The notes: generated from the sequence alone by a model not told the origin. A DNA stretch of 64,000 nt from a virus (IMGVR_UViG_3300048881_000780), one strand, 5' to 3'; numbered from the stretch's first letter, positions 1,549 through 63,924 are shown. Program-made: numbers and translations.

Positions 1549-1643
1549 ATATACATTTTAATAAATCTGAGGTGATACTCATCGTTTCTATTACTATATT
1601 TATCGCTATTTCTGACCCTAAATAAATTAATTAGTTGAATATA

Positions 1644-1660
1644 TTGACGGAAGGTGTTAA
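1644..1660. promoter_or_regulatory. Palindromic operator copy (TTGACGGAAGGTGTTAA) inside TTGAAT-17-TAATAT promoter
   Basis: Matches recurrent WTRAC-N7-GTYAW motif. Confidence 0.6.
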
Positions 1661-1690
1661 TATTTGAATATTAACCAGATGGAGGCATAA

Positions 1691-1975
1691 ATGAAGCTAT
1701 TTGCACTAGAAAAAATGCTACATTTTAAGCAGGAATTTGACCAAGATGCTAAATTACCCAAGACTGAAGAGGAGTTTAGAACATGGTTTATCCAGCTAGT
1801 TAAAGAACTGGAGCCTGAAAAACTATCCAGTGGTGGAGAGGCCACTAGAGCTGAGATGAGAGAGCGAAAGAAGGAGTTAGATTCCGCTTGGACAGAACTC
1901 GAGTTCCTAAGAGGTAAGAAAGTGAGCTTTAATGAGGCCGAGTCATGGCTCTTTGAAAGTGTAAAATCTACTTAG
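1691..1975 (+). CDS. Hypothetical protein
   Basis: ORF with GGAGG SD. Confidence 0.7.
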   Translation: MKLFALEKMLHFKQEFDQDAKLPKTEEEFRTWFIQLVKELEPEKLSSGGEATRAEMRERKKELDSAWTELEFLRGKKVSFNEAESWLFESVKST

Positions 1976-2255
1976 TAATCGCTTTTCTATAGTTAATCAC
2001 CATATCTTCATAAGAAGTGTAGTTTCCAAAATGACATTCTCCATTTGGATCTGGAATTGGTATTCTAAATTTGTAATCACAAATATCCCAAGAATCTAAG
2101 CCAACTCCCTTTTTAAAATATGAACCATCAGAAATTTCATATTCAATATTCTTTAATTTCTTTCTAATTTTAGAATTTGAATACCTCTTTGCGGATTTTC
2201 TCCACTTAGATCCATAACCTTCAGTTACAAACGCTTTTCTTCTACTCTTTCCCAT
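1968..2255 (-). CDS. Small basic conserved hypothetical protein (phage/plasmid type)
   Basis: AAGGAG SD; KR..N.KIR...G..FKK...WDICDY pattern recalled from phage small proteins. Confidence 0.7.
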   Translation of the reverse strand: MGKSRRKAFVTEGYGSKWRKSAKRYSNSKIRKKLKNIEYEISDGSYFKKGVGLDSWDICDYKFRIPIPDPNGECHFGNYTSYEDMVINYRKAITK

Positions 2256-2290
2256 ATAAAAACTCCTTAAAGCTCTCTATTATAAGAAAT

Positions 2291-2698
2291 TTAAATCAAA
2301 GACTTTAACCACGAATTATTCTTGGTAACGGGAATCTTCTTAATATCCTCTTTCTTACTCAAATCTTCCATCTCTCCATCAAATATCCCATTCGGAGGTA
2401 ATCTCTCCTCTAGTGTATGAATATCTACTTCTTTAATTACTGGATCACTATTAATTGGATACGTTACAAGATATGAGGTTTTAGACTTAAGAAAAGTTGA
2501 TCTGGTATCACAGACCTTATCTTTAAGGTCTATAAAATCAGCTGTTTTTAATTTTGAAAATAGCATGGTTCTAGAATCTAGAGCAATTGTTAGATAGCTT
2601 GAAGTTTCTCTTTCCTTATCATGGTAAACACCCAGTCCTGAAACTTGATCAAGAAAGCTACCCATTGTAAGTTCATTTAAATTCAACATATTAATCAC
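2291..2698 (-). CDS. Hypothetical protein
   Basis: 135-aa ORF. Confidence 0.6.
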   Translation of the reverse strand: MINMLNLNELTMGSFLDQVSGLGVYHDKERETSSYLTIALDSRTMLFSKLKTADFIDLKDKVCDTRSTFLKSKTSYLVTYPINSDPVIKEVDIHTLEERLPPNGIFDGEMEDLSKKEDIKKIPVTKNNSWLKSLI

Positions 2699-2747
2699 CC
2701 ATTACTATTATAATTAAATTACGATAAGCACTTTAGGAGACAAAATT

Positions 2748-3116
2748 ATGATAGAAATTAAAAAAGTAAGCGTTGATAACTATAAAATAGATCTAAAGAA
2801 TTCTAGAAAAAAAGAAAGGCCCACAATGACTGATCCTGGATCTCCTGCATCACTAGCGATTGATATCTATAGAATTAGCGTTGAAGATAAGAGCGCTCTT
2901 TTAAAAACATTAAGTGTAGGTAAAACGATTCGTTTTAAAATTGATCAAGACTTACTACTTACTCATCCTAAAAAAGATATCGATATGGAACACTATGCAA
3001 ATGGATGGGGAGAGGGAGAAATCTCTTCTATTGAAAATTTTGATAAAAATTGCGAAGATGATGAAACCCAAGAAATCACAATTAACTTAGAGAGTGGATA
3101 CGCTGAAGAGCTATGA
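2748..3116 (+). CDS. Hypothetical protein
   Basis: ORF with AGGAG SD. Confidence 0.7.
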   Translation: MIEIKKVSVDNYKIDLKNSRKKERPTMTDPGSPASLAIDIYRISVEDKSALLKTLSVGKTIRFKIDQDLLLTHPKKDIDMEHYANGWGEGEISSIENFDKNCEDDETQEITINLESGYAEEL

Positions 3117-4550
3117 TTTAAAAGATCCCTTCTTCTTTAACCACGTCAATCGATCTAACCCTTGAAGGTGAGGTGGAATATCAAAGATTCTCTCCTCTAT
3201 TGTTTGTGCCAGGTAATAGCAAAAATATTGAACTGTCTTAGTTGTTGAAATTCTCTGAAATCTACCAATTAGTTGATTTCTCTTTTCTTGCTCAAAACTT
3301 AGAGAAAAATCCAGACAAATATCACAGTAATCTAAATTAAGACCTCTAGAGTCTACCTTTGCATTAAAAAGGAGTATTTGATAAGCGTGATTCTCACCTA
3401 TAAAGTGCGGGTGACTAAAACTCTTAGAAAATTCCTTCATTGTGAGATCGCTTGGGAAAATCACAGCAATTCTAGCGCTTGGAAACTCCTTAATCTTTTT
3501 TAATAATTCGCTCTTTACTTTAGAGATTCTTATATTTGCAAGGCCCTTTAACTCAAGACTCAAGTCATCGGACTTTTGATAATTTCCAGCCTTTAATGGT
3601 GTTTTAATAACTTTAGAAACATTTTTAAAAAGACCTTTAGCGGTTCTTCTTAGGTAGTACTTCTTTACATCAGTCAGTAAATTCCCCTTGGCCTGATGAG
3701 TATTTGTATCTTTTTCAAAGTAAAAATACCTTTTAAGGAATTCTGTCTTTAATAAATCTTTTTGAATAAGCGACAATTCCCCATAGAATCTCAATTGATC
3801 GAGTTCCAAATCAAAGGCATTTAGAAAAGTTATCTTATCAGTATGAGATAGGCCCTTCTTAAATAGTTTATACTTCTTTGTTGTCGTATTTCTAAGGCAT
3901 TGTGATTCATCAATAACTACATAATGATAGTCACTAAAATGATCAATATCTTTTTTTAACTTTTCTAGATAATTCTTATGTGAACATAGCAGTATTGGGG
4001 TATTTTTACTCTCATCACTGCTAATAATAGTGGCAAATCTTCTACCATAAACAAGAGAGGCCTCAGTCTCCCAAGTTTTAATGAGATGTTCTGGTGCGAG
4101 AATTAACGCCCTTTTAGAGGAGTTTACTAATACTAAGAGAGCGCAGAGAGAAATTGTTGTCTTCCCCATACCTGGATCATCTCTAAGAAAGGCCTTTCCG
4201 TCGTTTTTCACAATAAAACTAACTCCCTTTTCTTGAAAGGGGTATAACTTTCTCTTGATTGGATATTCAGAGAGGTTGACCACTCGCTTTTTAAATTCAT
4301 TATTATTTAAATAATCTTCTAAATCTGAATCGGCCTTAAATTGATAATTTAAATGAGAAGCAAACTCAAGGAAGTTATATAAATGATCGCGATTCACTGG
4401 AAAATCCCAATAAAACTTACCCTTTATTTTCTTACCGACAACTTCCTTATATTTTTTTACTTCTTTTAGTAGGATTGCATCATAGGGGAAAGATAACCTA
4501 AAAATAGGTTCTTGTGTGTTATTAAAATATTCACACTTAATTAACTTCAA
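3111..4550 (-). CDS. SNF2-family helicase-like protein (divergent)
   Basis: LYPFQEKGV Q-motif, DDPGMGKT Walker A, VIDESQ Walker B, GLNL and QLIGRFQRI motifs V/VI. Confidence 0.8.
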   Translation of the reverse strand: MKLIKCEYFNNTQEPIFRLSFPYDAILLKEVKKYKEVVGKKIKGKFYWDFPVNRDHLYNFLEFASHLNYQFKADSDLEDYLNNNEFKKRVVNLSEYPIKRKLYPFQEKGVSFIVKNDGKAFLRDDPGMGKTTISLCALLVLVNSSKRALILAPEHLIKTWETEASLVYGRRFATIISSDESKNTPILLCSHKNYLEKLKKDIDHFSDYHYVVIDESQCLRNTTTKKYKLFKKGLSHTDKITFLNAFDLELDQLRFYGELSLIQKDLLKTEFLKRYFYFEKDTNTHQAKGNLLTDVKKYYLRRTAKGLFKNVSKVIKTPLKAGNYQKSDDLSLELKGLANIRISKVKSELLKKIKEFPSARIAVIFPSDLTMKEFSKSFSHPHFIGENHAYQILLFNAKVDSRGLNLDYCDICLDFSLSFEQEKRNQLIGRFQRISTTKTVQYFCYYLAQTIEERIFDIPPHLQGLDRLTWLKKKGSFKS

Positions 4551-5509
4551 CCTACTCGCTCCTTAAGATTATCTAACAACTCGATCAGTATCTTAAACCT
4601 CTCAACCATCCCTGAATAGATTATAGAATCCATCTCATCTAGACCCTCGTCATCATCGTATTTAACGAAACTTCTATCTTTTACCCCATCTACACCAAGA
4701 GAAGATTGAGATAGTTTGATCTTAGATATCTGTTCACTCATTTTCATTAATTGAGGATTAAAACTAATGGAATCGACCTCAAATTTTTCTTCGGCCATTC
4801 CTTCATAGACAAAATTATCAAGTTTACTAAAACTACCCCTATAATCAATTTTTTCACTCTTAATTAAATTTTCTCTACTTTTAAAAGTGATACTCACCTT
4901 CTCATCCTTCATATCTGGAGAGTCTGATAATAGAAAAAATAATGAATTTAAGATATCTGCTCTTTGATAAGTTTTATTTTCTTCATCAAAGAAGCAATAT
5001 GTTAAACAAGATAATTCAATATCAATACCAAGATATTGCTTTAAATAGAGCATGAAAGAATAATTATAGTCCTTTCGAATAATACTTGAAGCAAAGAGAT
5101 TATCCTTAGTTGAAATAAAGAAAGTAACTTCCTTTTCTTTAATTGGAGAAGTTAATAGACACTCTTTTCTTGCTTGGGCCTCAATAGTGTACCTATCATC
5201 ACGATACTCTCTTTTTCTCCACCATTTATTTGGAAAACCATTTTTTAAGATGGCCTGTTGATATAGATCCTTTTTTCTCTTTTTTACATCAGATTCTTTA
5301 ACAACCACTTCTTTACAAATAAAAGTTAAATAACAAATATCTAAATCATCTAGATACCTTGATTTCTTTTCCTTAAATACCCAAGATCTTCCATATTCTC
5401 TAACATTTAAAGGTTTTGAATCTATTAGAGAATAAAATAGAAAAGATAAGTCAACCTGGTTGTCTATATTGAATATTTGCGCACTATACGTTTGCGTCAA
5501 CATAGACAT
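4547..5509 (-). CDS. Hypothetical protein, weak resemblance to RdgC
   Basis: 320-aa ORF in operon with SNF2; the segment KEVVVKESDVKK...ARKECLL resembles the RdgC N-terminal pattern (by eye only). Confidence 0.5.
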   Translation of the reverse strand: MSMLTQTYSAQIFNIDNQVDLSFLFYSLIDSKPLNVREYGRSWVFKEKKSRYLDDLDICYLTFICKEVVVKESDVKKRKKDLYQQAILKNGFPNKWWRKREYRDDRYTIEAQARKECLLTSPIKEKEVTFFISTKDNLFASSIIRKDYNYSFMLYLKQYLGIDIELSCLTYCFFDEENKTYQRADILNSLFFLLSDSPDMKDEKVSITFKSRENLIKSEKIDYRGSFSKLDNFVYEGMAEEKFEVDSISFNPQLMKMSEQISKIKLSQSSLGVDGVKDRSFVKYDDDEGLDEMDSIIYSGMVERFKILIELLDNLKERVG

Positions 5510-5735
5510 CAGTTAACTCCTGTAAGGTAGTAATAACTTCGTTAAAAACCTTTTCATCATTAAATGAAAGACTGTAGTTTTGGGAACATTGTCCAAAGAA
5601 CTTAAAATCTTCTTTGAATTTAAGGTCAAATTTATTCTCAATAAGTTCAATTAGATCTTTTGAGCTTAAACCTGTATTCTTCTCTTTAAAGAATATAGAA
5701 AAATCCTTGAACGTCAGTCCAATTGTAAACTTCAT
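5484..5735 (-). CDS. Hypothetical protein
   Basis: AGGAG SD, first gene of operon. Confidence 0.65.
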   Translation of the reverse strand: MKFTIGLTFKDFSIFFKEKNTGLSSKDLIELIENKFDLKFKEDFKFFGQCSQNYSLSFNDEKVFNEVITTLQELTDVYVDANV

Positions 5736-5762
5736 AAAAACTCCTAATGGTGTGTTATGCGA

Positions 5763-5966
5763 TTAAGGAACCATTAAATAGATAACGCCACTTGTGTATT
5801 TTAAGGCGCCATTAACTCCATCCTTAGATTCACTTTCTTGAATATCTAATTCCCTTTGCTTGTCTTTGATAAATGAATTGACATCACTACTCTCGACCTT
5901 ACCTTTAGAAGATCCGGCGCAAGAAGCGAAAACAAATAAAGTGAACAATAATACAAATATTTTCAT
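5763..5966 (-). CDS. Small lipoprotein
   Basis: Likely start MKIFVLLFTLFVFASC (lipobox) at 5966. Confidence 0.7.
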   Translation of the reverse strand: MKIFVLLFTLFVFASCAGSSKGKVESSDVNSFIKDKQRELDIQESESKDGVNGALKYTSGVIYLMVP

Positions 5967-5975
5967 AAATATATT

Positions 5976-5992
5976 ATAACAGATTGTGTTAA
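5976..5992. promoter_or_regulatory. Palindromic operator copy (ATAACAGATTGTGTTAA)
   Basis: Abuts minus-strand TATAAT of the lipoprotein gene. Confidence 0.7.
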
Positions 5993-6109
5993 CTATAAAA
6001 AGCATCATAAGTACCTAAAAAAGCTTAGATGTGTAATGTTTTTCTCATTCTTAACCTTTAGTTGACGATATTTAGGCCCGCACACTACTCATTAAATTAA
6101 AATAGATAT

Positions 6110-6598
6110 ATGAGATTATTAATTCTAGCTCTATTTTTTTCTATGACATCAAGTGCTTATGATTTAATTATTCCAAGCCCTCTGATTTCTTGTTACAAAG
6201 AAAATAAAGACTTTATTAAGGAAAGGGCCTTAGTTACCATTAGGGCCAAGTTAAAAGATGAAATAAAGGAAAAGATGAGAGCTAAGAATTTAAATGATAC
6301 AGATATATATAGATTTATCACAAATCCCTATCTCGATTTAAATGTAAAGATTAACAAAATTAAAGAATACGTCGAATTTAGCTTTTCACCAAATTCATCT
6401 ATTTACGAACAGGATTTTCAAAAAAGACTTCACAATTTTTCAAATCATCCATTCTTAGAGATTAAAAGTATTACTAAAAGTCGAGTTAATGATATAAAAC
6501 GGGTACATGATTTTTCTATAGGTTGTCAGGCCCATTATTTTCACGACACAAAGAATGATGATCACAGAATACAATTTCTATTTAAATGGTCATTTTAA
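6110..6598 (+). CDS. Secreted hypothetical protein
   Basis: Signal peptide MRLLILALFFSMTSSA; ATG 6 nt after TAAAAT. Confidence 0.75.
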   Translation: MRLLILALFFSMTSSAYDLIIPSPLISCYKENKDFIKERALVTIRAKLKDEIKEKMRAKNLNDTDIYRFITNPYLDLNVKINKIKEYVEFSFSPNSSIYEQDFQKRLHNFSNHPFLEIKSITKSRVNDIKRVHDFSIGCQAHYFHDTKNDDHRIQFLFKWSF

Positions 6599-8235
6599 AC
6601 TCTTTTAATATCCGATAGAATCATCTCGCCACTTGAAGTAACACCATAAGTAATTTCAACACGTTTATTTAAAAACAAAGATAGATTATCTCTGTTTAAG
6701 AGTTTCATGATCTTATCAGAGTATTTCCAGAAAAATAAAAGCCCAGTAGATGTAGTAGACTTATCCTTTAAGATTAATTTGAAATGATCTCCGTTTTTTC
6801 CCAAAGACTCTATATCTAGTAATGTGGCCCTACTTTTAAACTCGGGCGCTTCTCTTTTTTCTCCAAATGGAAAGAGGGTTTTATATTGATCTTGAAAATC
6901 ACTACTAAAAACTTCACTTAGTTCTATCTTAAGAGACTTATCAATTATGCATGGTTTTCTTTTTTGTAAGTTTTCCTGTAAATACTCAAGCTCACTTTCT
7001 CTCAAACTCATACCACAGGCCATTTTGTGACCACCAAAAGATATAAATAGATCTCGTCCCTTTTCCTCTCGATGCTTAGAGTTAATTTGAGATAAGTGAT
7101 CATACAAGTTAAAGTCTTCAGTGGAGCGAGCACTACCTTTATAACAGTCCTTTTCTTTATTGTAAGTAAGACAAATACAAGGATAATGAAGCGACCTAAC
7201 TAAACTTCCGGCCACTAACCCTGCTACTCCCTCATGAATAGAACTATCAACATAGAGAAACACGCCACTTGGTGACTTATCACTAAGTGCTTCAAGCGCC
7301 CTATGAGTATTTTCTCTTTGAATATCTTTTCTATTTTTATTTTCATTTTGTAGAAACTTAATTGCTGAGAAATCATAATTTCCCAAAAGAAACTTAAGCG
7401 ATAGATCCATATCACCCAATCTTCCTTTGGCATTTAAAATGGGACATATTTGAAACCCCACCTTTTCAAAATCTATGGATTCATTACCTTTTAAGTAAAC
7501 TAGAGTCTTAAGATGTGAATACATCTTCATACTATTTAAACTTACAAGGCCTTTTTTACAAAGTTCAATATTTACTCCCTGCATGGGAACTCGATCACCA
7601 ATCGTTGCAAGACATACAAAGCCAGTTAAGGCCTTCAAGCTGATTCCTACTTTTTCACTCTTTTTTAACTGATCGTTAATTGCCCATGATAAGTAAAATG
7701 CGACTGCACAACCGCAAAGTATAGATAATTCATTCTCTTTGGAGTCAAATCTCTTAGGGTTTACAACACTGTGAGCATATGGAAGTTCTAAGCTACCGTT
7801 CTCGTGATGATCTGTAATAATTAATTCCAAACCAATTTCTTTAGCAAAAACAGCACTGGAGATTGCGGTGATTCCACAGTCCACAGTGATTAACAGATCT
7901 ACTTTATCTTCTTGCTTGGCCTTTTTAATAATATCTTTATGTAGGCCATAACCATCTATAAAACGATCCGGTTGATAAGTTGAAATCTTGGATTTAAACC
8001 CATTATGCTTTATTATTTCGGATAGATAGATATAGAGAGTTGCTATACTAGTGGTACCATCGACGTCATAGTCTCCATAGATACCAATATTCTCTCCATT
8101 CTCTAGGGCCTGAAATACTCGCTTTGAGGCCTTTTCACAGTCAATTAGCTTGGAGTAGTGAGGAATGGATATTTCTTCATTAGGATCAATATTTGACCTT
8201 CTTAGATATTCTTTTAAGATTTCATTTGTTATCAT
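6595..8235 (-). CDS. recJ: Single-stranded DNA-specific exonuclease RecJ (DHH family)
   Basis: GDYDVDG, TVDCG, TDHH, GSARS, GGHKMACG motifs. Confidence 0.93.
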   Translation of the reverse strand: MITNEILKEYLRRSNIDPNEEISIPHYSKLIDCEKASKRVFQALENGENIGIYGDYDVDGTTSIATLYIYLSEIIKHNGFKSKISTYQPDRFIDGYGLHKDIIKKAKQEDKVDLLITVDCGITAISSAVFAKEIGLELIITDHHENGSLELPYAHSVVNPKRFDSKENELSILCGCAVAFYLSWAINDQLKKSEKVGISLKALTGFVCLATIGDRVPMQGVNIELCKKGLVSLNSMKMYSHLKTLVYLKGNESIDFEKVGFQICPILNAKGRLGDMDLSLKFLLGNYDFSAIKFLQNENKNRKDIQRENTHRALEALSDKSPSGVFLYVDSSIHEGVAGLVAGSLVRSLHYPCICLTYNKEKDCYKGSARSTEDFNLYDHLSQINSKHREEKGRDLFISFGGHKMACGMSLRESELEYLQENLQKRKPCIIDKSLKIELSEVFSSDFQDQYKTLFPFGEKREAPEFKSRATLLDIESLGKNGDHFKLILKDKSTTSTGLLFFWKYSDKIMKLLNRDNLSLFLNKRVEITYGVTSSGEMILSDIKRV

Positions 8236-8333
8236 CTATTCCTCACATAATTAATTATAACACAAATCATATCTTAACGCAAGCTGTCAGCTTTTATTAA
8301 AATTTCCACTCTGTTTTCTCATATAATCCCTGT

Positions 8334-8573
8334 ATGAGAAAAATTAAATATGCGCGACAATTACCAAGTGATAATCAAAAAAAGTATAGAGTTAGAGAAT
8401 ACCTTAAAGAAGTTAATGAGGTGATGAAGGATATGGTCTTAGCAAAGAAGTCCAAAAGAGAAATATTGCTCTATATTCAATCAAAGAGAGATCACGTTAA
8501 AAAACTTCCATCAACAGAAGTAAATAGATTGATTTTAAATAGTTTAAATACTTTACTTAGATTAAAATCTTAA
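8334..8573 (+). CDS. Small basic hypothetical protein
   Basis: ORF preceded by CCACT-N11-TATAAT-6nt-ATG. Confidence 0.6.
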   Translation: MRKIKYARQLPSDNQKKYRVREYLKEVNEVMKDMVLAKKSKREILLYIQSKRDHVKKLPSTEVNRLILNSLNTLLRLKS

Positions 8574-14850: not shown

Positions 14851-14938
14851 TTTAAACTCCTATATATATATTTTAAATTATTAAGGAGTGGTTCTTAAAA
14901 ATGATTCAATATAAGAGGGCCTAACGGCCCACTTTATA

Positions 14939-19367: not shown

Positions 19368-19746
19368 CTTTACTCTCCCTGTCAAATGCCATAAAAACAA
19401 TATTGCTTTCATCACACTTATCGTTTTCTGCGATCTTACGTAGATAGAATTCTGTAAACTCTATAACTTCCGTAGCAAATTCAGGTCGAAGATTAAATGT
19501 AGTCTCGTCAAGATTGGAGAATAACTCTCCTAGATTTTTTAAATAAGTGATTTCTGACAACTCAAGATTCTTTTTTGATACCACTGTTTTAATTGTTAAA
19601 AGTAGTAAATTTCTAATGGATTTAAAATTTCTATCATTAACACATAACTGATACTGAGCGGCCAACATTCGATAATCCATAAATAACTCCTTATTCTTAT
19701 TATATTTATAAATAAGTGGGAATATCTCACCTGAGTGCCTTTTCAT
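19312..19746 (-). CDS. Hypothetical protein
   Basis: 144-aa ORF. Confidence 0.6.
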   Translation of the reverse strand: MKRHSGEIFPLIYKYNKNKELFMDYRMLAAQYQLCVNDRNFKSIRNLLLLTIKTVVSKKNLELSEITYLKNLGELFSNLDETTFNLRPEFATEVIEFTEFYLRKIAENDKCDESNIVFMAFDRESKDDATKVSKGEQRTERSSN

Positions 19747-24705: not shown

Positions 24706-24831
24706 AATTTACCTCATTATTATTATATTTTTTTTGAGGTAATGATTTTGTTAGCTAAGTAGCTTAAATATGGTGAATTATTTTTCTAGATATTTGAAAG
24801 AAACCACTCGAGGTTAGACTATAATATAATT

Positions 24832-24904
24832 ACAGAGAGACAATAACGTCTCCTCCTGTCTTGTTGTTTTACTAAATCCCTCTTATTTTAAGAGGGATTT
24901 TTTT
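24832..24904 (+). ncRNA. Candidate sRNA with anti-SD motif GUCUCCUCCU
   Basis: CCACT-N11-TATAAT promoter 24804-24825; 5' hairpin; terminator 24874-24904 with + strand U-tract; no ORF; flanking genes both on minus strand. Confidence 0.6.
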
Positions 24905-24907
24905 GGA

Positions 24908-26127: not shown

Positions 26128-26177
26128 TAAATAGAAGCACTATTAAATAACTTAAAATAGTAAAAATAGGAGCATTT

Positions 26178-29448: not shown

Positions 29449-29643
29449 ACCCCTATTTTAAAAATCCAAGAGTGGGAATATTAAAAAATTAAAACGTAAA
29501 GCACTGATAATTCATAATATAAAAATTATTTTTTTTAAAATAAAGGCCAAAACTCTCTCTATTGAGTCCCAAAGACAACAATGGAGAGTTTTATGAAATT
29601 GAAAATTAACGTAGTGATCAAAGTGACAATTAGAGTTGAGGTG

Positions 29644-30863: not shown

Positions 30864-31061
30864 AAATCACTCCAGTTAATTTGTTAAGACTGTTTATATT
30901 TTACCACCTAACTAAGTACTTAATCGAGTGCGAGATACAACTCTTCATAATCTTTACGCAATCCTGTGTAATATTTTTAAATTTTACGCAAGTTTGCGTA
31001 ATTTAAATCTAGAGATAAATAGTACTTATAAGTACGTATAATAATATTAAGGAATATATTT

Positions 31062-32954: not shown

Positions 32955-33000
32955 CCTCAATCACTAAAAATTCTTACACTCGTCGAAGGTGTATAATATA

Positions 33001-37365: not shown

Positions 37366-37524
37366 AAATATCTCCTTTCATTTATCTAAGATTAGGATAA
37401 CTCAAGGTTTTTATATTTCAAGCTTTTTTTGACATTTTATGTCAAGTCTTAACAAATTTCGGTAAATAGCACTCCTTCCTGCGATATAATTAGAAGTAAA
37501 GATAAACCAAAAACGGACAAAGAT

Positions 37525-41103: not shown

Positions 41104-41220
41104 ATTACTATTTTAAGTGGAAAAGGAGTGGTATTGATAACTATCAGCATATTTAGACTTCTCAACATAGATGATAGATAGACAGAGCCTATTTGCTGAC
41201 ACCTTGTGTCAAAAAATACA

Positions 41221-43146: not shown

Positions 43147-43179
43147 AACTCTATTTTAAATTATTTGAAGTACTCTAAA

Positions 43180-46670: not shown

Positions 46671-46883
46671 ATTAAATCCTTTTATCCATTTTATTTTTTA
46701 AGTAAGTGAAAAATAAAAAAATCTTTAGTTAAATAAAGTTAAAATAGATAAGAGTCCGTTTAAAAACGGATAATATTCGAGCTAAATAAATATCACTTAA
46801 TTACAATAATTAGTTGGCCCTTATGTGCGCAAAGCATCAAGTGAAAGACTAGACATAAGCAATCAAAATGCTACTATTTAAGG

Positions 46884-48954: not shown

Positions 48955-48970
48955 GGTTATATTTTAATAA

Positions 48971-49189
48971 TTAAAAAGTGGTTTCAATATTTCCAAAATT
49001 AATTTTAAAGTGCCTAATTATATCTTCTCTAGTTAATTTAGACTCTGCTCTTCTTTTCTTGTTTTTTCGTCTTGCTCTATTTTTAAATTTCTCTTTATTT
49101 TCTTTTCTACAGAGAGACTCTTTTTCGTTAAATTCTTTTCTCTGCTTTTTACTTTTAAACTTTTTACAATGATTCAAAGTAACCTCCAT
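48971..49189 (-). CDS. Small highly basic hypothetical protein
   Basis: K/R-rich ORF behind TTGACA promoter with operator 49210-49226; exact start uncertain. Confidence 0.45.
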   Translation of the reverse strand: MEVTLNHCKKFKSKKQRKEFNEKESLCRKENKEKFKNRARRKNKKRRAESKLTREDIIRHFKINFGNIETTF

Positions 49190-53851: not shown

Positions 53852-53956
53852 TTATGTTCCTTAAGTTGTGTAGAACAATATTAACATACCTCCTTTCTTG
53901 ACACAAGCCGTTAACTTATCTTTTTATTGGCGCTACAAAAAGTCTTATAATGTAAG

Positions 53957-54059: not shown

Positions 54060-54076
54060 ATTCTAAGGACATTGTT

Positions 54077-54751
54077 TTGAATAAGTTAGTTATAGGATTA
54101 GTCGGATATAAGGGTGCTGGAAAATCAACTTTTGCATCATTTGTAAAGTCGATAGTATCAGACGCAGAGGAAATTAGAATCGCTGATAAAATCAAACTAA
54201 CTTGTGCCCAATTACTTAATGTAGATGTCTCAAAGTTTGAAGATCTTAATTTTAAAGAAACTCCATTTGATCACCCACATAAGTTATCAATAACAGATAT
54301 TAAGTACTTACTAGAAGCTTACGACGTTCCCGATTATTTACACAATAAAATCATATCTCGACATAGAGGAGTTTTACTAGAAACTCCTAGGAAGTTTATA
54401 GTTTATCTTGCCACAAATATCCTAAGAGATGAAATAGACCAAGATATACATTTAATTGAGTTAAACAAGAGAATTGAAAATTCTAAATCTAATACATTGA
54501 TTATTTCTGACATTAGGTTTGTAAATGAATTTGAGTTCTTGGCAGAGAGCTTTGGATTAAACTTTAAAGGCATTTACCTTAAAAACGTTAAAGCATATTC
54601 CAATATGATTAAAAATGGCGAAATTGAAAAAAGTGAGTCATTTGTTCCTGAATTAGGTAGAAGGTGTCAGCTAAAAATCAATAATAATTCAACTATCGAA
54701 TCTTTTAAAAAGCGCTCTAAATCAGCACTAGAACCGTTAATAGCACTCTAA
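54077..54751 (+). CDS. Deoxynucleoside monophosphate kinase (phage type)
   Basis: IGLVGYKGAGKST, ADKIK, TPR, ISDIRFVNE. Confidence 0.8.
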   Translation: MNKLVIGLVGYKGAGKSTFASFVKSIVSDAEEIRIADKIKLTCAQLLNVDVSKFEDLNFKETPFDHPHKLSITDIKYLLEAYDVPDYLHNKIISRHRGVLLETPRKFIVYLATNILRDEIDQDIHLIELNKRIENSKSNTLIISDIRFVNEFEFLAESFGLNFKGIYLKNVKAYSNMIKNGEIEKSESFVPELGRRCQLKINNNSTIESFKKRSKSALEPLIAL

Positions 54752-54791
54752 ATAACGTTATAATAAATAAAAGTTATTTAACGAGGAAATC

Positions 54792-55946: not shown

Positions 55947-56012
55947 GTGTCTAGAAATATTTCAATATATTAAATAATTTAAAGCTATGGGTAAAAAATA
56001 CCGATTTACTTG

Positions 56013-56029
56013 TTGACACGTCGTGTTAA
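56013..56029. promoter_or_regulatory. Palindromic operator copy (TTGACACGTCGTGTTAA) overlapping -35
   Basis: Motif match; TTGACA is part of the left arm. Confidence 0.75.
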
Positions 56030-56114
56030 CTAATATACCCTTTAATTACACAGCACCAAAGAGTTCACACCTCTTTAGCATATATTGAGTAGTTAATGAA
56101 AATGGAGATTTCCT

Positions 56115-56495: not shown

Positions 56496-56510
56496 AGGCC
56501 AGGAGTAGTA

Positions 56511-57074
56511 ATGAACGAGCTTATATATAATTTTAAAAATGAAGTATTTAAATTACCCTACCCTATTACAGCTATTGTGTCTGCCGTTATGTTATTATTT
56601 TTTGTGGGCCTTTTTTGTTACATTTTATGGCACTTATTTACTCGTCCAAAGAAAGAAAATGTAGAGACATTGGGGAGTGTTCAATCTTTAGACTTTTTTA
56701 AAAGTAATGAGATTGATTTTCTAAAAAAAGAAGTTGTCCAGCTAATCAAAGATAAAATTAAAGTTGAAGAGCTGTTGAGTACTCTTTGTGATCAGGGTAA
56801 ATATTGCTATTTCTCATATCATTATCACTCTACTCAGACAAAGGCCGATACTTATGGCGATGGATATTTCTTTCATGAAAAGTATATATCGGTAGAGGGA
56901 ATAAAAGGCTATTTAAAAGATTCAATAAGTGATTGCAGGGATCTTGTTATTCTAAATTTACATGAGTTAGATCGCGACTCTTATGTCGTTTGTATGAATG
57001 ATAGATTATTTCAATTAAAAAATAATATCAAAGAAAAAGAAGATAAGATATTAGAACTTAAAAATGCTGGATAA
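56511..57074 (+). CDS. Membrane-anchored hypothetical protein
   Basis: AGGAG SD; one TM. Confidence 0.7.
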   Translation: MNELIYNFKNEVFKLPYPITAIVSAVMLLFFVGLFCYILWHLFTRPKKENVETLGSVQSLDFFKSNEIDFLKKEVVQLIKDKIKVEELLSTLCDQGKYCYFSYHYHSTQTKADTYGDGYFFHEKYISVEGIKGYLKDSISDCRDLVILNLHELDRDSYVVCMNDRLFQLKNNIKEKEDKILELKNAG

Positions 57075-57075
57075 A

Positions 57076-57258
57076 TTACTTATTCCAGCTCTTCATTTCA
57101 TCAGTAACCATATCTAAGATTTTAAATCGGCAAGTAGTTCCAACATTTATTTTTCTCTTTAAAATAAGATCTCTAATTTCATTAGGTTTTACGGGTTTTC
57201 CTTTATAGAGCTCAAATGCAATATCTTTAATAATCGTTGAAATATTCGAATTTCTCAT
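57076..57258 (-). CDS. Small hypothetical protein
   Basis: GGAGG SD; CCACT-N11-TAAAAT promoter. Confidence 0.6.
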   Translation of the reverse strand: MRNSNISTIIKDIAFELYKGKPVKPNEIRDLILKRKINVGTTCRFKILDMVTDEMKSWNK

Positions 57259-57301
57259 AAATCCTCCATTTCTTATATTTTACCACCTCTTTAAGTGGTT
57301 C

Positions 57302-58384
57302 TTAAGAAATTAACTTGGTGTCTTGGTCGTTTGATTTAAGGGCCGGATTTATAGACATTGATCTTCCAGCTTGCTCTCCTAGATTTCGAGAGTGGGTATT
57401 GTTACCACTTTTAGATACTGAGGACTTTATTTTAGAAAAGGCACTATCGATTAAATCTTGTTGAATCTTATCTATTTGCTTTTGCGAGAGAACTAAATCT
57501 GTAGAGTTATTGATAGTCTCTGGAGACATTTTTTTAGTAAATCCGTCAGCTAGGCCACGAAAGAATGAGTTTTTAGCCGAAATTCCTTTGAGTTTCTGTT
57601 CTTTTTTTGTTTTTAACCACAGTCTATCAAGCTCGTGATCAAGAAAACTTGTAATATATTTGGCCATCTCCATTTCTTCTCTATCCTTTACCACTACAAG
57701 TAATTCATTGTACTTAAGTCCACTTGAAAATATTGGAGCAATGAATGGAAACGATTTTAAAATAAAGTAAATTGCTGAAGTCTTTGAATTTCTTCTACTG
57801 CTAGAAATTACAACGTCTGAATAGACTTGCTCATTACTTACTTTCTCTACACTTTCTAGGTGGTATTTACAAATTAGATCATTTGCTTTTTTTAGTGCCA
57901 CTTGAGATTCATTAATATTAGAACTATCTGCCATGGCGAGAAGTTTCTTTACTTTTTTAAATACTTTTAGCTCTGGGTTTGAACTCTCATCAGTTTTAAG
58001 CTTCATTTTAGACTTGGCCTCTGATTGCCAATTATATCTCTTGGCGATGGCCTTAAATTCAGTGCCGTGAGATTTAACATTATCTCCATTCTCAAGATAA
58101 TTTACCAGGTGAATTATTTCATGCCTAATTACTTCTATTAAATCTTCATGAGCAAATTGGTAAGAAAATTGTTTATTTATCCCAATAGAGAATCTATTTG
58201 GATCAAAATGACCTAGGGTTTTAGAGCTTTCAATGATTTCAACAGATAACTTCGTATAGCGATTATTAAAGAGAATGTATTGCTTGGATCTATTTACATT
58301 CAATCCGACACTTTCCATCTCAGAGAATATTAAATTCAGAACCTTAATCGAAAAAATAGACATTGCTTCGCTATGTATTCTCAT
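57302..58384 (-). CDS. SprT-like zinc metalloprotease fused to DUF2786-like domain
   Basis: HEIIH...HGTEF; KVKKLLAMADSSNINES. Confidence 0.8.
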   Translation of the reverse strand: MRIHSEAMSIFSIKVLNLIFSEMESVGLNVNRSKQYILFNNRYTKLSVEIIESSKTLGHFDPNRFSIGINKQFSYQFAHEDLIEVIRHEIIHLVNYLENGDNVKSHGTEFKAIAKRYNWQSEAKSKMKLKTDESSNPELKVFKKVKKLLAMADSSNINESQVALKKANDLICKYHLESVEKVSNEQVYSDVVISSSRRNSKTSAIYFILKSFPFIAPIFSSGLKYNELLVVVKDREEMEMAKYITSFLDHELDRLWLKTKKEQKLKGISAKNSFFRGLADGFTKKMSPETINNSTDLVLSQKQIDKIQQDLIDSAFSKIKSSVSKSGNNTHSRNLGEQAGRSMSINPALKSNDQDTKLIS

Positions 58385-58416
58385 GACCCCTCCTCACTTT
58401 GATTATTTTAGCACAA

Positions 58417-58453
58417 AAGACACGCTACGTCAAAACTTAACACGATTCGTTAA
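58417..58453. promoter_or_regulatory. Tandem operator copies (AAGACACGCTACGTCAA; TTAACACGATTCGTTAA)
   Basis: Two motif matches in a divergent promoter region. Confidence 0.65.
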
Positions 58454-58508
58454 ATTATAGATTACAAAGTCAACAACAGGTATTATAATACTACTAAATG
58501 GAGATATT

Positions 58509-58883
58509 ATGAAAAATGAAGAGTTTAAGATTGCATTTGAAGAGTTTAGAAAGAATCTACCAAGCGGTGAATGCCCTATTTGTAGTGATCTTTATCGTGG
58601 ATTCGTTGCTGGCTTCAATAGAAATCTTAGGCTAATTGAAAAAATGCATACAGAAAATAGTGAATTAAAAGAATGGATAGTCGAAAGCAAGAAGGAAGAT
58701 CTTTTTAGAAATCGAATTCACAAGATTGATAAACTAAAAAGAGATATCGATTCATTAAGTGAAAGAATAATTGTAGCAACCGATATTATGAAAATTGTTT
58801 GTGCTGATGACTCAAGTAAGAAAAAAGTAGTCGATGATTTTCTAGAGTGCCCCGTTATCAAAGAAGTAAGAGGATTAAAATGA
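58509..58883 (+). CDS. Hypothetical coiled-coil protein
   Basis: GGAG SD. Confidence 0.65.
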   Translation: MKNEEFKIAFEEFRKNLPSGECPICSDLYRGFVAGFNRNLRLIEKMHTENSELKEWIVESKKEDLFRNRIHKIDKLKRDIDSLSERIIVATDIMKIVCADDSSKKKVVDDFLECPVIKEVRGLK

Positions 58884-59377
58884 AGAAAATTTTATTAATA
58901 GTAACCTTAGTGTTATCTCATTCAGTTCTATCTTGTTCTAAATCTTACTGGAAGAAAGCTCAATTTCAGGATGATCTAACAGAGTCAAAATACCGAAGAG
59001 TTGGTAAGTCAATAGCCCAACTTGTAGATAACAATGCTTACGGTATAAAAGAAAAGGATTTAAACTTTGTTAAAAGAAGGTTTATTTCCCTTTTAAAAGA
59101 CAAGGAAGAGGCAAGACTTCAAATCAGAAAGACTATAAATATGTGGTCTCACTTAAGAAGTAATTGCACTGGAAAGAATAGACGAAATGCCAAGAAAGCT
59201 CATATAAGACTTAAAAACTATAGATCCAGGGTAACTAGAGTTATCAATGAGAATACTAAAAAAGTAGAAACTTTAATTAAGAGAGCAGAGAAAAAAAGAA
59301 TAGAAAAATTAAATAATCAAGAAGGTAGTAATTCTAAAAGTAATTCATCCTCAGTCTGGGAGGAAATACAGTGGTAA
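58880..59377 (+). CDS. Secreted basic protein
   Basis: MKKILLIVTLVLSHSVLSC signal. Confidence 0.65.
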   Translation: MKKILLIVTLVLSHSVLSCSKSYWKKAQFQDDLTESKYRRVGKSIAQLVDNNAYGIKEKDLNFVKRRFISLLKDKEEARLQIRKTINMWSHLRSNCTGKNRRNAKKAHIRLKNYRSRVTRVINENTKKVETLIKRAEKKRIEKLNNQEGSNSKSNSSSVWEEIQW

Positions 59378-59787
59378 GTTGTAAAAAGTGCCTAGAAACT
59401 GTTAGAAATAAAAAACCTTCTCCTATCGGAGTGATGATTAGTGAAATGGGTTTTTGTAGTATGTATTGCTTGGGTTCCAAAGGAATGAAATCAATATTTA
59501 AAAAATTTGATAAAAATAAAGAAATTGAGGAAAAGAGTATGAAGGCCAATAATCGAGCATTTATTAGAAGAGATACAGAAGTTACAAATAAATTAAAATC
59601 CTTAGTTAAAAGTAACATGATTATTCTGAATCCAGATTGCTACTTTAATCAGGAAAAGTGGTTATTTGAAAGCGGAGAATCTTTTCATGTATATAGTGAT
59701 GGGGTAAAGGTAACCTTTTTAGATAATCGCCTCCCTAGGTTTTCACTTTGTATCAAACTCGTTGAATTAGAGTTTGAGGAAAAATAG
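59371..59787 (+). CDS. Hypothetical protein with Cys motifs
   Basis: CKKC...FCSMYC; GGAGG SD. Confidence 0.65.
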   Translation: MVSCKKCLETVRNKKPSPIGVMISEMGFCSMYCLGSKGMKSIFKKFDKNKEIEEKSMKANNRAFIRRDTEVTNKLKSLVKSNMIILNPDCYFNQEKWLFESGESFHVYSDGVKVTFLDNRLPRFSLCIKLVELEFEEK

Positions 59788-60078
59788 ATGAATTTGTCCC
59801 CACCATTAAATATTGGACAGAGATATAGGATCGAAAGACCTTCAAAGGGAAACAAAAAGAGAGTTCTCTCTGGGATTTATGAGGTGTCAGCTGTTTATGC
59901 CCAGGTTACCTGGTCAAAAAAAGGTCTTCGGGAACCAAAAGATTATCTTGTTGAATTCTCTATGATCGATGAGAATGATATTACATATACTCTCACTGCG
60001 AGATGGAGGAGTGGGGCCTTTTACCACCCTTATAATCATAAGGAATTACTGAATTGGAGAATTTCTAAGATCCAGTAG
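59788..60078 (+). CDS. Hypothetical protein
   Basis: GAGG SD. Confidence 0.6.
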   Translation: MNLSPPLNIGQRYRIERPSKGNKKRVLSGIYEVSAVYAQVTWSKKGLREPKDYLVEFSMIDENDITYTLTARWRSGAFYHPYNHKELLNWRISKIQ

Positions 60079-60176
60079 CTTTAAGGATTAAATATTGAAT
60101 CAATATAGATCTACGTAACTAAATTCTTCCATTAATTTATAAGAAAGTTTTCAATGTATAATTTCATTTTTGACAA

Positions 60177-60467
60177 CTAATGTATTTTATATATGTCTAT
60201 TTGTTGATCATTTTTTATTATCTTACAAGGAATACCTTTTACTTTTAATTGAATTTCATTTCCTTTGTTTAATTCTTCTTTGATATAACTTTTAAGGGTA
60301 ATATCATTTTTAAATTCTTCAGCCGTCACTTTGATAGTTAATTTATCTGTAATAATAGAAGATAATTTTAACTTCTCTTTTTTTATCATAAACTTTATTA
60401 ATATATATACTCCAACAAGGGCGACACTCATTAGAAAAATCATTGAAAAAGTATCTAAGCTAAACAT
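60177..60467 (-). CDS. Small membrane protein
   Basis: N-terminal TM; AAGGAG SD. Confidence 0.6.
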   Translation of the reverse strand: MFSLDTFSMIFLMSVALVGVYILIKFMIKKEKLKLSSIITDKLTIKVTAEEFKNDITLKSYIKEELNKGNEIQLKVKGIPCKIIKNDQQIDIYKIH

Positions 60468-60531
60468 TTTTAAACATACTCCTTTTTAAGTTCCTGTTAT
60501 TACGTACATTATAATTTTTCCACTTGAGTTT

Positions 60532-60548
60532 TTAACACAATGTGTTAA
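60532..60548. promoter_or_regulatory. Perfect operator copy (TTAACACAATGTGTTAA)
   Basis: Perfect 7-3-7 palindrome upstream of RNase H. Confidence 0.8.
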
Positions 60549-60569
60549 GATACTTTTACTGGAGTTTTC

Positions 60570-61034
60570 TTGAAAGATGAATTTGTTACCATTTATAGTG
60601 ATGCTTCTTTTTGTCCAAATCAAAAAATTATGGGTTGGGCCTTCTATTCTAGGTGTTCAAGTGGGAAAATGAAGAAGTATGGTTTATTAAACGAAAAGAC
60701 AAATTGCTCAACAACTGCTGAAATGGAAGCTATTTTAATCGCAGTTAAGAGAACTATCCGTAGATGGCCTCACTTAAAGGGTGTATTTGTTAATTGTGAC
60801 TCTTTAACGAGTTGTGAGCTACTTTGGCCTTCAAACTTAAAAGAAACTGATCACTATAATTTACCAAGAGCTCAAAAAATCAAAGATGAAATTATTAGCT
60901 TGTTAGAAAGTAAAGGTATGTGGCTGAGAGTGAAACATGTAAAAGGGCATCAAGTTAGTGATAATGTGAGAAGTTATTTAAATAACTTTTGCGACAAGAA
61001 GGCCAAAGAAAAACTTCTAAAGGCCTCCTCTTAA
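60570..61034 (+). CDS. rnhA: Ribonuclease HI-like
   Basis: YSDAS, AEMEAI, NCDS, HVKGH, NNFCDKKAK. Confidence 0.85.
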   Translation: MKDEFVTIYSDASFCPNQKIMGWAFYSRCSSGKMKKYGLLNEKTNCSTTAEMEAILIAVKRTIRRWPHLKGVFVNCDSLTSCELLWPSNLKETDHYNLPRAQKIKDEIISLLESKGMWLRVKHVKGHQVSDNVRSYLNNFCDKKAKEKLLKASS

Positions 61035-61036
61035 TA

Positions 61037-61663
61037 TTAGGCCACTGCTTTATTCCCAGTACAACTACTACATATTCCATCAGTCATAGAACTCTCCAAT
61101 CCCTTAGTATTGCACTCGTCACACTCTGAAACCCTTCTCTCTCCAATTATTTTCAAACAATCTCCACTGAAATCAAAGCAAACATAGATATTACCTAGTG
61201 TTTTATGAAAACTGTGATGAACTGGATATCTCTTTACCAGCGAGTGTAGCACAGATACGATCTCAGTATTTTCAGTAATAGTGTACAATCCTTCATCATT
61301 ATCTAATACTTTTGAGATACTATAAGAGAATTCAGATAGCGCTGAGTCTCCATCTAAAACTTTTTGACATGCATCAATAATTTTTTCACCCTTTTCTAGT
61401 TCATGACTAATTTCGCACATCTCTCTGGCGCTTGAAATTAGCCCCTGGAGTACTTCTAACTTAGTTCCATCTAAGATATCACTATCATCGATTTGAACCT
61501 CGTAAACGCTCTTTGTTGCATACTCATAAGCAAGTAGCCAGTTAGAAGTTAGATAGATCCCCTCACCTTCAACTCTTTTGAGTGTTTCCACTCTTTCGCA
61601 ATATTCTGCCTTGTAAACCAACTTTTTTAATCCAGATTTACTGGATCCATGAAAAACTTCCAT
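61037..61663 (-). CDS. Protein with ADP-ribosyltransferase-like N-terminus and C-terminal CxxC pair
   Basis: VFHGS...GEGIYLT....AYEYA; start after GGAGG. Confidence 0.55.
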   Translation of the reverse strand: MEVFHGSSKSGLKKLVYKAEYCERVETLKRVEGEGIYLTSNWLLAYEYATKSVYEVQIDDSDILDGTKLEVLQGLISSAREMCEISHELEKGEKIIDACQKVLDGDSALSEFSYSISKVLDNDEGLYTITENTEIVSVLHSLVKRYPVHHSFHKTLGNIYVCFDFSGDCLKIIGERRVSECDECNTKGLESSMTDGICSSCTGNKAVA

Positions 61664-61778
61664 AATTACCTCCAAAATACATATCGTAAATATCCAATAA
61701 AAGGGGAAAATATGAAAAAATGAGCACTTAGTTAAAATATTTATTGACATGACACGTTAACTAATATATTATTTAATT

Positions 61779-62070
61779 AACAAAGGGTTCAACTCTAACC
61801 GCCAAGATGGCCAGCTTAGGAATCCAACTGTTAATATTCCAAATAGCTTCTAAGTATTAGAGGTAATGTTCAGGAAGAACGACTAGGAAGGAATAATTAA
61901 GAGGGAAAGTTTGTGATTAAATTAGACTTCTTTTAGAACTTTAATTTGTCAAAAACAAATCATTACATTAAGTGATGTCTCGCGTTTGAAAATTTGCTAA
62001 TGTCTCAACATCTCCTCGCTTCGTTTGAGCATATGACAATTGAATAACTAAAGATTTTCCTCTTGTTTTT
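61779..62070 (+). ncRNA. Candidate ~290-nt structured ncRNA
   Basis: TTGACA-17-TATTAT promoter (61744-61772) with operator; no ORF; long-range pairing of 61899-61912 with 62051-62064. Confidence 0.45.
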
Positions 62071-63828
62071 TTATCTAAATACCATCTTACATTCTGTTAT
62101 TTTTATTTCAGCTGAAGTGTAGGCCCCTTCTGCGGCCCATCCACCTGTGTGAATGTAGAAGTAAATCCCCCAGTTCTTCGAGTCTAGTTGCCTTATAATC
62201 GAGTGAGTTGGCCAACTTCTTCCAACTGGATGTTGAGGAATGACTGATCCTCCCATAATGCATTTTTGCTGATGAACATGGGCCGTCTCCGTCATATTTG
62301 AGTAAATCCAGTTATGTGTCCACACCTGATCTAATATCGTGATATTCTCTGCCGAATCAAACTTGTAATTGTATATTCTTCCAGCATGAGGTTGACACTC
62401 ATCACCACTACAGGTTGGTTGAGCAACGTAACCTGAGTAGGTAACTCTTTTTTGATTTTCTTTTATGTAAAATATTAAAGAATTTCCGTCTCTACCCATT
62501 TCATCAACAGCTGTAACTTTAATCTCTATTTTTTCAGAGGGATATCTTCTGCGACAAAATCTAGATGTTGAAGTTGAGTACTCTCCCGTTATTTGACCAT
62601 CGTTATCAATAATAGGTAGTCCTAAGCAATTATCTAATGGTGTCGCTAGTTTAAATTCGGAATTTCCATCTTCAAAATGTTTGACGTGATCAATTCTAAC
62701 AGTAGCACCTGGAGTGAGAGTAAATTCCGGTAAATAGAAGTACTGACCACTTGGTGATTCGAATGCGGCGCCTTCACTATCTAGAGAATACAATTTATTC
62801 ACTGTTGTACTGGCATTGTGAGAGAGCTTTATTTCCGCGGGAGTGACTCCCGAATTAAACCATTCATTACATACATTGGAGTGACCCTTTTCTAGAAGAT
62901 CATCTTCAGAAACTCTAATTACCTGATCAAAGTATGACCCAGAGTCTCTTAGTACTAATTCTCCTATTGAAAGCTCTTCATCTGAATAAAAGTCTGTACA
63001 TAGATTTTCATCACAAGTGAAATTACTTGGTCCTTTTGAGTGTACAAACTCCAGACCTGTGGTAGAAAAATTTTCAAAGCTATATCCAGTATATGTTGGA
63101 GACAATGACGCTCCCTCCATAGATGTTTTTTCATATATACCTGAACAACACTGTCTAGATCTGTGAAAGAATCTACAATTAATTTCTTTAGTCCTCTTTA
63201 TGCACATCCTTTGCCTAAGCTCTCCTCCACACTTTCTTCTTGAAGGATTTCTGGTAACATTGAACGTTGTATCATCTGTCTCAACGTACCCGAAGGGACA
63301 GCTAAATTTATTCGCTTCTAACCATAGAGAATCATCATCATTACAGACATCTCTACCAGTTGAGTTAAAATAGTTTCTAGCATCCTCTCCGTAAACGCCA
63401 CTTGAAAAATTTTGAGCGCAAATATCGGAACTATTCTTTCCAGGTACTCTTTGTAATCCCGACATCTTAATATCGACATTCTTGAGTATATTTGAAATCA
63501 GAGTAAAGCTGGATGCATCCTCATTTACTTTTGTCGGTGAGAAATCAACAGAAATATTTATATCATTATCAGCTGAGTAGAGCTTTGTTCTAAGGTTTGT
63601 TTTATAAGATTCTGGTAGCATCTTAAAGAAAATATTCTTATCTTCTCCCTCCATATTACCTGATATCGTGGCCGTAAAATTGCTACCATTATTTGAAATA
63701 TTTGGAGTATAGTCGTAAGGATAGTAACAAAATACTCCTTCGCAATTCACTTCAATTTCAATAGGAGGACTCTCCTCTTGGGCGAAAATATTCAACTGTA
63801 ATAATATTAATAAGATAACAATTCTCAT
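62071..63828 (-). CDS. Secreted cysteine-rich protein
   Basis: Signal peptide; many Cys (FSCPFGY, RQCCSG). Confidence 0.75.
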   Translation of the reverse strand: MRIVILLILLQLNIFAQEESPPIEIEVNCEGVFCYYPYDYTPNISNNGSNFTATISGNMEGEDKNIFFKMLPESYKTNLRTKLYSADNDINISVDFSPTKVNEDASSFTLISNILKNVDIKMSGLQRVPGKNSSDICAQNFSSGVYGEDARNYFNSTGRDVCNDDDSLWLEANKFSCPFGYVETDDTTFNVTRNPSRRKCGGELRQRMCIKRTKEINCRFFHRSRQCCSGIYEKTSMEGASLSPTYTGYSFENFSTTGLEFVHSKGPSNFTCDENLCTDFYSDEELSIGELVLRDSGSYFDQVIRVSEDDLLEKGHSNVCNEWFNSGVTPAEIKLSHNASTTVNKLYSLDSEGAAFESPSGQYFYLPEFTLTPGATVRIDHVKHFEDGNSEFKLATPLDNCLGLPIIDNDGQITGEYSTSTSRFCRRRYPSEKIEIKVTAVDEMGRDGNSLIFYIKENQKRVTYSGYVAQPTCSGDECQPHAGRIYNYKFDSAENITILDQVWTHNWIYSNMTETAHVHQQKCIMGGSVIPQHPVGRSWPTHSIIRQLDSKNWGIYFYIHTGGWAAEGAYTSAEIKITECKMVFR

Positions 63829-63924
63829 ATAACTATTATAAATCTTCTTTTAGTGATTTATTGAATTTTAAGTCTCTATCACCTAGGCCTAGGATATAAT
63901 AGATTTATCAGAAGTTGAGGTTAT

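Follow-up and report, generated by a model that had tools for sequence, protein, structure and literature searches.

Evidence for a separate promoter class with a CACT box 10-11 nt upstream of a σ70-type -10 hexamer in a giant element from a hydrothermal vent

Can promoters that have a near-consensus -10 hexamer and no recognisable -35 element be read through a short box about one helical turn upstream and, if so, by what? The question is raised by IMGVR_UViG_3300048881_000780, DNA of a giant element that encodes a type IV secretion system (T4SS) and comes from an uncultured vent bacterium, in which the original prediction had placed promoters of the form NCACT-N10/11-TAWAAT in front of secretion, Clp and exported-protein genes. 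The stretch analysed (the window) is 64,000 nucleotides (nt) long, has a G+C content of 32% and is a portion of a 361-kb contig. In a hydrothermal-vent metagenome the same DNA forms a Logan contig of 145 kb, and the window and the Logan pieces, retrieved by exact-protein look-ups, were merged without mismatches into 136,686 bp (window coordinates -62,857 to 73,828). Across these 137 kb there are 19 exact CACT-N10/11-TAWAAT sites, 15 of which lie within the window.

The 15 sites in the window compare with 1.73 +/- 1.32 in 100 dinucleotide shuffles of it (shuffle maximum 5), and the spacing between the two blocks peaks sharply, with 12 pairs at N11, 3 at N10 and about 1.3 at each of the other spacings. 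A lack of such enrichment over shuffles had been named in the original prediction as a possible refutation. When all 4-mers were scanned without bias at all offsets upstream of the 291 TAWAAT hexamers, CACT at -15 came out as the top combination, far ahead of the rest (12 observed, 1.1 expected, p 2.7e-9), and no spacing peak appeared when the box was paired with other TANNNT hexamers, the box pairing solely with TAWAAT. The spacing is N11 at 15 of all 19 exact sites and N10 at the remaining 4. The 13 exact NCACT boxes listed in the original prediction are where it had put them, and two that it had left out, at 19718(-) (gene start 19680) and 54744(+), were added.

The box at the right offset is found at 17 of 125 intergenic TAWAAT hexamers, where about 0.9 would be expected, and at 2 of 371 coding ones. 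CACT itself occurs as often in coding as in non-coding DNA, and since the box is nevertheless nearly confined to intergenic TAWAAT, the enrichment does not come from intergenic composition. Composition, chance or the copying of one duplicated promoter cassette might be suspected behind such a pattern, as the core is short, the DNA is AT-rich and the spacers of two sites (29474 and -36838) both start with CTTGG. However, the observed count was never reached by the shuffles, the peak falls at a single spacing, the enrichment persists when conditioned on intergenic DNA, and, apart from the two blocks, flanks and spacer carry almost no information, which shows that no single sequence was copied to make the sites. 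An artefact, which we regard as very improbable, is already largely refuted by these four results, and the CACT-N10/11-TAWAAT motif is real.

Boxes with one mismatch show a weak excess at the right offsets (14 against a background of about 9), and the six variants in the original prediction (GTACT at 31022, 30919 and 43173, TCACC at 1575 and 63879, GCGCT at 53930) are present as written but have no statistical support as members of the class. Outside the window there are 4 exact sites in 72.7 kb, with about 1.7 expected; the full architecture is present at 3 of the 4, one of which follows directly on P0002, an orphan gene of the T4SS operon. The sites cluster by region, and 17.7 kb of DNA-repair genes contain none. 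A related arrangement, CCACT-N10-TAGGAT (box at -36838), lies 5 nt ahead of an ATG (window -36863, L007:14035) that opens the gene of an exported protein two genes past P0002; its spacer begins with CTTGG, as does that of the 29474 Clp promoter.

Aligned, the 19 exact sites hold information solely in (a)C-CACT-(c), in TAWAAT-A(G/T) and in one further column, an A. The hexamer is a near-consensus σ70-type -10, often extended to TAWAATAG, a word that shows no enrichment on its own. The additional A is the 7th nt after the hexamer, present at 18 of the 19 sites against a background of 37% (p 2e-7), and is read as the predicted transcription start (+1) because a σ70-type -10 would place the start there. 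Counted from it, the box occupies about -28 to -24 and the C-A-C-T columns about -27 to -24.

At 8 of the 19 sites this A is the first base of an ATG that lacks a Shine-Dalgarno (SD) sequence, and would thus open a leaderless transcript; at 7 others the ATG follows 11-21 nt further on, with an SD just downstream of the A. One further site has a 52-nt leader, and the site at 24805(+) has no open reading frame (ORF) downstream. An arrangement in which the -10 ends 6-7 nt before an SD-less ATG is shared by the 8 exact sites and two in-window variants, and in most of the 8 leaderless genes the start codon is fixed by the clear signal peptides with which the proteins begin. The class is best read as giving leaderless or very short-leader transcripts. 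Leaderless or short-leader promoters that have TATAATAG after an A-tract and no CACT box are also found, at window -40527, -24907 and -21083 (L007, L006), so the leaderless set is wider than the CACT class.

Upstream of the hexamer no -35 match rises above background, the best match averaging 2.84 of 6 at class sites and 2.59 at all other TAWAAT sites, which bears out the claim that TTGACA is generally missing. The TGn of extended -10 promoters is present at 2 of the 19 sites against a background of 6.5%, a rate that does not mark the class as extended -10. The aligned sites conserve neither an inverted partner (AGT after the -10) nor a second half-site upstream or downstream. Three other readings were considered and rejected. 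A σ54 promoter (-24/-12) does not fit, as there is no GG at -24, the -12 region is TAWAAT and the start would fall inside SD-less ORFs; an extracytoplasmic function (ECF)-style reading, with the -10 shifted downstream, would likewise start transcripts inside SD-less ORFs; and as a half-site of the element's operator the box shows weak likeness and a spacing to the -10 that is off by 5 bp.

Promoters of the ordinary kind coexist with the class in the same element. TTGACN-N16-18-TANNNT has 11 of its 21 occurrences in the non-coding DNA, which makes up about 11.5% of the sequence, and these canonical promoters often overlap a 17-bp palindromic operator. At window 56013, 58433, 61744, -40481 and 67355 the -35 is fused to the left half of the operator as TTGACAC-N3-GTGTTAA, so that the repressor site overlaps the -35. 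The presence and intergenic bias of the canonical promoters imply that a polymerase reading a normal -35 acts on the element. The class sites have no -35 while a TTGACA-N17 set exists beside them, and the view that the CACT motif marks a promoter class separate from the canonical and operator-controlled promoters of the element is supported. Some start codons are preceded, at 15-35 nt, by a third recurring word, TACGATAA or GCCGATAA, which resembles the -10 element of σ28 (FliA); 13 copies are intergenic in 119 kb, for example at window 2720(+), 43969(-) and in the L004 region at about 65.6-73.6 kb.

A class without a -35 could simply be the promoter type of the host, its holoenzyme alone making up for the absent -35 by reading CCACT as a basal spacer or proximal element. 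The -10 is indeed a plain σ70-type hexamer and the genes driven are functionally mixed. The comparison with host-like genomes speaks against such a reading. The VirB4-like ATPase encoded in the region has relatives, as far as found, in Bdellovibrionota (21-28% identity), and five genomes of that phylum, two of them with the closest VirB4-like relatives, were scanned together with one related plasmid, pBdHM1. In none did the motif exceed a reversed control; its density was about 2-17 sites per Mb, depending on the genome, whereas the present DNA has about 140 per Mb. When 185,579 species genomes were searched for the leaderless form in its strict version, CCACT-N11-TAAAATAG-N4-ATG, there was one match per stretch among the matches listed. 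The canonical TTGACA-N17 promoters of the same element, the regional clustering of the class and its absence from the repair-gene block point the same way. The motif is thus not a general promoter of these genomes, which are the nearest sampled and may not be the host's. The Bdellovibrionota counts and the species-genome scan weaken the host-promoter explanation without removing it, and we consider it unlikely. No close homologues of the VirB4-like protein or of P0002 were found, there was no near-DNA match among plasmids and none came from a viral-contig search. In a second vent run the element is present as near-identical short contigs, from which, being near-identical, no phylogenetic footprint was obtainable; one contig, at window 46689, has an extra A in the spacer A-run of the 46708 promoter (N11 to N12), which at low depth may be an error.

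What the class drives agrees in part with what had been claimed. There is a modest excess of exported and membrane proteins in the class (8 of 14 against 38 of 130, p 0.037, by a crude hydrophobicity rule), which also includes an SLT protein, the operon of the VirB4-like ATPase and two Clp ATPases, which are merely 33% identical to each other and both carry the architecture; a third Clp paralogue has a CACC-N10-TATAAA variant. The description as secretion, Clp and exported-protein promoters is nonetheless too narrow, as a methylase, a helix-turn-helix (HTH) gene and a small RNA (sRNA) belong to the class as well.

The nearest known parallel is the one that the original prediction had drawn. 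Middle promoters of phage T4 have their MotA box at 12 +/- 1 bp from the -10 and depend stringently on an excellent -10, and a monomeric activator acts at them with a remodelled σ region 4 (PMC2988021). Both systems need an excellent σ70-type -10, both have a short oriented box in the place of the -35 at about one helical turn upstream (10-11 bp here, 12 +/- 1 bp in T4), in both the box would be read as a single asymmetric site, and canonical early-type promoters coexist in the same genome. They differ in the box, which is CCACT here and (a/t)(a/t)(a/t)TGCTTtA in T4, in its centre (near -26 here and -30 in T4, about 4 bp nearer the start), in TGn, absent here and present in about half of the T4 promoters, and in the half of the transcripts here that are predicted to be leaderless; neither a MotA nor an AsiA family is among those given for the called genes of the DNA read. 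The analogy holds for geometry and for the strict -10, and does not extend to the box sequence or, in the DNA read, to the protein families.

Leaderless-mRNA promoters, in which 6-7 nt separate the -10 hexamer from the start codon, have been described in Actinobacteria and Deinococcus. The 8 leaderless sites, with TAWAAT-N6-ATG, no SD and the predicted initiating A as the A of the ATG, resemble them, whereas most genes here have a strong SD, the leaderless minority goes together with a particular box upstream, and leaders of 11-21 nt are found at another 7 class sites. Canonical σ70 and extended -10 promoters share with the class the -10 hexamer and its distance to +1; they differ from it in the TTGACA-like hexamer at 16-18 bp and the TGn, both lacking here, and the conserved element of the class lies about 6 bp nearer the -10 than a -35 hexamer does.

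We consider it probable that the sites are working promoters of one dedicated class, in which the CCACT box replaces -35 recognition and has a dedicated reader. Each would consist of a near-consensus -10 and an oriented, asymmetric (a)CCACT(c) box 11 bp, sometimes 10 bp, upstream, without -35 or TGn. The conserved A 7 nt past the hexamer would be the transcription start; in about half of the cases this A would open an SD-less ATG and yield a leaderless mRNA, and in most others it would give an 11-21 nt leader with the SD near the 5' end. The box would serve as the docking site of a dedicated protein held at a fixed distance from σ region 2, which might be a monomeric activator acting like MotA or the region-4-like domain of an element-encoded σ factor. 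A regulon of exported and envelope proteins, the VirB4-like operon, the SLT protein, two Clp ATPases, a methylase, an HTH protein and an sRNA would thereby be set apart from the operator-controlled promoters. Contact by a dedicated factor inside the initiation complex is proposed because the box is short, asymmetric, oriented and placed to within 1 bp relative to the -10, because there is no -35 and an excellent -10 is needed, and because a subset of genes carries it. A normal region-4 reading is unlikely, since the box lies about 6 bp too near the -10.

The same box could also be a negative site, bound by a repressor in the spacer of strong '-10-only' promoters so that the regulon stays silent until induced. 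The spacer between -35 and -10 is a common place for operators, and the element uses repression elsewhere through its 17-bp palindrome. Yet a short, asymmetric box in one orientation, within 1 bp of its position relative to the -10, is typical of a contact with the polymerase complex and not of a dimeric repressor; a second half-site is conserved neither upstream nor downstream, and promoters without -35 or TGn are expected to need help, not restraint. We regard repression through the box as improbable, and its properties agree with neither a dimeric repressor nor a basal element.

If a dedicated reader is encoded by the element, P0002 (L007:12357-13259) is a candidate. This 300-residue orphan is encoded in the T4SS operon, 7 nt after a VirB10-like gene and immediately upstream of a CCACT leaderless promoter. 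Its better-modelled residues 233-300 align to many σ region-4 domains (Z 5-6, root-mean-square deviation about 3.5 A over about 64 residues), and the top Foldseek rows, which are weak, consist mostly of σ factors. The models make a weakly σ-region-4-like C-terminus of P0002 suggestive, and such a domain would suit a 5-bp asymmetric site; nothing ties P0002 to CCACT. Going further, the element may encode its own promoter-specificity device without a detectable relative, σ-like or MotA-like and for example P0002, which would read CCACT at -26, too near for the region-4/-35 geometry, and switch on a largely leaderless secretion, envelope and Clp set after the operator-controlled genes. We put this forward tentatively, as a possibility that falls short of even chances.

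Several points weigh against a dedicated class with a reader of its own. A search of 1.84 billion representative proteins found no homologue of P0002, and Pfam, PHROG and PDB sequences gave no match, σ regions 2 and 4 being undetectable in it by sequence; two attempts at single-sequence AlphaFold models were poor (pLDDT 41-43), and the fold matches are below the tool's level of meaning. The MotA and AsiA families are absent from the Pfam entries listed with the called genes and from the scans, which covered most of the 137 kb. Of the second regulon under an element-encoded activator or alternative σ factor that had been proposed, the separate promoter class is supported, no reader was identified among the genes of that DNA, and the two-phase programme (establishment versus transfer) is conjectural. 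The 10-11 bp spacing, about 6 bp shorter than any -35/-10 arrangement of the σ70 family, disfavours an ordinary region-4 reading, all +1 positions are predictions from sequence, the conserved core is merely 4-5 bp and the held-out test beyond the window was weak. A host-wide promoter type, finally, keeps some probability, as the comparison genomes may not be those of the host.

The sites of the window and the features next to them are collected in Table 1.

Table 1. Exact and variant box/-10 pairs in the window, with predicted transcript starts and adjoining features
Feature	Position	Strand	Predicted start and leader	Gene or product	Remark
ACACT-N11-TAAAAT	6082..6103	+	leaderless; predicted +1 = A of ATG 6110	162-aa protein with signal peptide	
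CCACT-N11-TATAAT	8306..8327	+	leaderless; ATG 8334	79-aa ORF	
CCACT-N11-TAAAAT	14870..14891	-	predicted +1 14863; 13-nt leader; ATG 14850	117-aa membrane protein, first in operon holding the VirB4-like 1164-aa ATPase	SD near 5' end
CCACT-N10-TATAAT	19699..19719	-	12-nt leader; ATG 19680	122-aa ORF	added to original list
CCACT-N11-TATAAT	24804..24825	+	predicted +1 24832		no ORF downstream
Predicted non-coding RNA, ~75 nt	24832-24905	+			5' hairpin; CUCCUCCU (anti-SD-like) stretch; strong intrinsic terminator near 24905; folding z = -4.7
GCACT-N11-TAAAAT	26137..26158	+	13-nt leader; ATG 26178	104-aa ORF	
CCACT-N10-TAAAAT	29455..29475	-	leaderless; ATG 29448	747-aa ClpA-like AAA+ ATPase	
Terminator-like hairpin	29927-29901				upstream of the 29448 ClpA-like promoter
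ACACT-N11-TATAAT	32976..32997	+	52-nt leader; ATG 33056	123-aa Xre-type HTH protein	
GCACT-N11-TATAAT	37469..37490	+	ATG 37525	232-aa protein with signal peptide	sole site with T (not A) at predicted +1
CCACT-N11-TAAAAT	41110..41131	-	leaderless; ATG 41103	235-aa exported protein	second CCACT abuts the -10
TCACT-N11-TAAAAT	46688..46709	-	11-nt leader; ATG 46670	second ClpA-like ATPase (716 aa)	
CCACT-N10-TAAAAT	48961..48981	-	leaderless; ATG 48954	exported SLT-domain transglycosylase	
GCACT-N11-TATAAT	54743..54764	+	21-nt leader; ATG 54792	C5 DNA methylase	added to original list
CCACT-N11-TAAAAT	57277..57298	-	12-nt leader; ATG 57258	60-aa ORF	
TCACT-N11-TATAAT	63835..63856	-	leaderless; ATG 63828	585-aa exported protein	
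Variant TCACC-N10-TAAAAT	1555..1575	-	leaderless; ATG 1548	exported 578-aa protein	membership plausible, without statistical support
Variant GTACT-N11-TAAAAT	30898..30919	-		gene starting 30863	
Variant GTACT-N10-TATAAT	31022..31042	+		gene starting 31062	
Variant GTACT-N10-TAAAAT	43153..43173	-	leaderless; ATG 43146	641-aa lipoprotein	
Variant GCGCT-N11-TATAAT	53930..53951	+			adjoins operator copy at 53898
Variant TCACC-N11-TATAAT	63879..63900	+			divergent from the 63855 promoter

The region also encodes an FtsK-like ATPase, SLT, three Clp/AAA+ paralogues, RecJ, RecD2, two SSBs, MutS, a DksA/TraR-like protein and many orphan ORFs. The DksA/TraR-type zinc-finger protein (122 residues, L138:10916-11284 (-)) is a possible modulator of the RNA polymerase secondary channel and adjoins the recA and helicase genes. 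The RecA-like protein at L138:12703-13983 (+) has nearest Atlas clusters that are 90-100% viral (Uroviricota), and together with T4_Y16D and T4-type dNMP-kinase domains it forms a phage-like DNA-metabolism module beside the T4SS of the element. Just past the window end, at L004:2027-3830 (-) (window coordinates about 70-72 kb), lie the genes of a histidine kinase and an OmpR-type response regulator, another possible regulator of the element's promoters.

With the motif, promoters, transcription starts and start codons can be annotated for about 20 genes; it is also a simple sequence handle for tests of orphan candidate regulators. If a factor encoded by the element reads the box, this would be a second, unrelated case of -35 recognition replaced by a proximal box, best known from T4 MotA/AsiA, and leaderless translation would be tied to a defined regulon in which over half of the first genes encode exported or membrane proteins. 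A promoter-specificity device of the element's own would, if true, be a new solution to σ redirection outside T4 phages.

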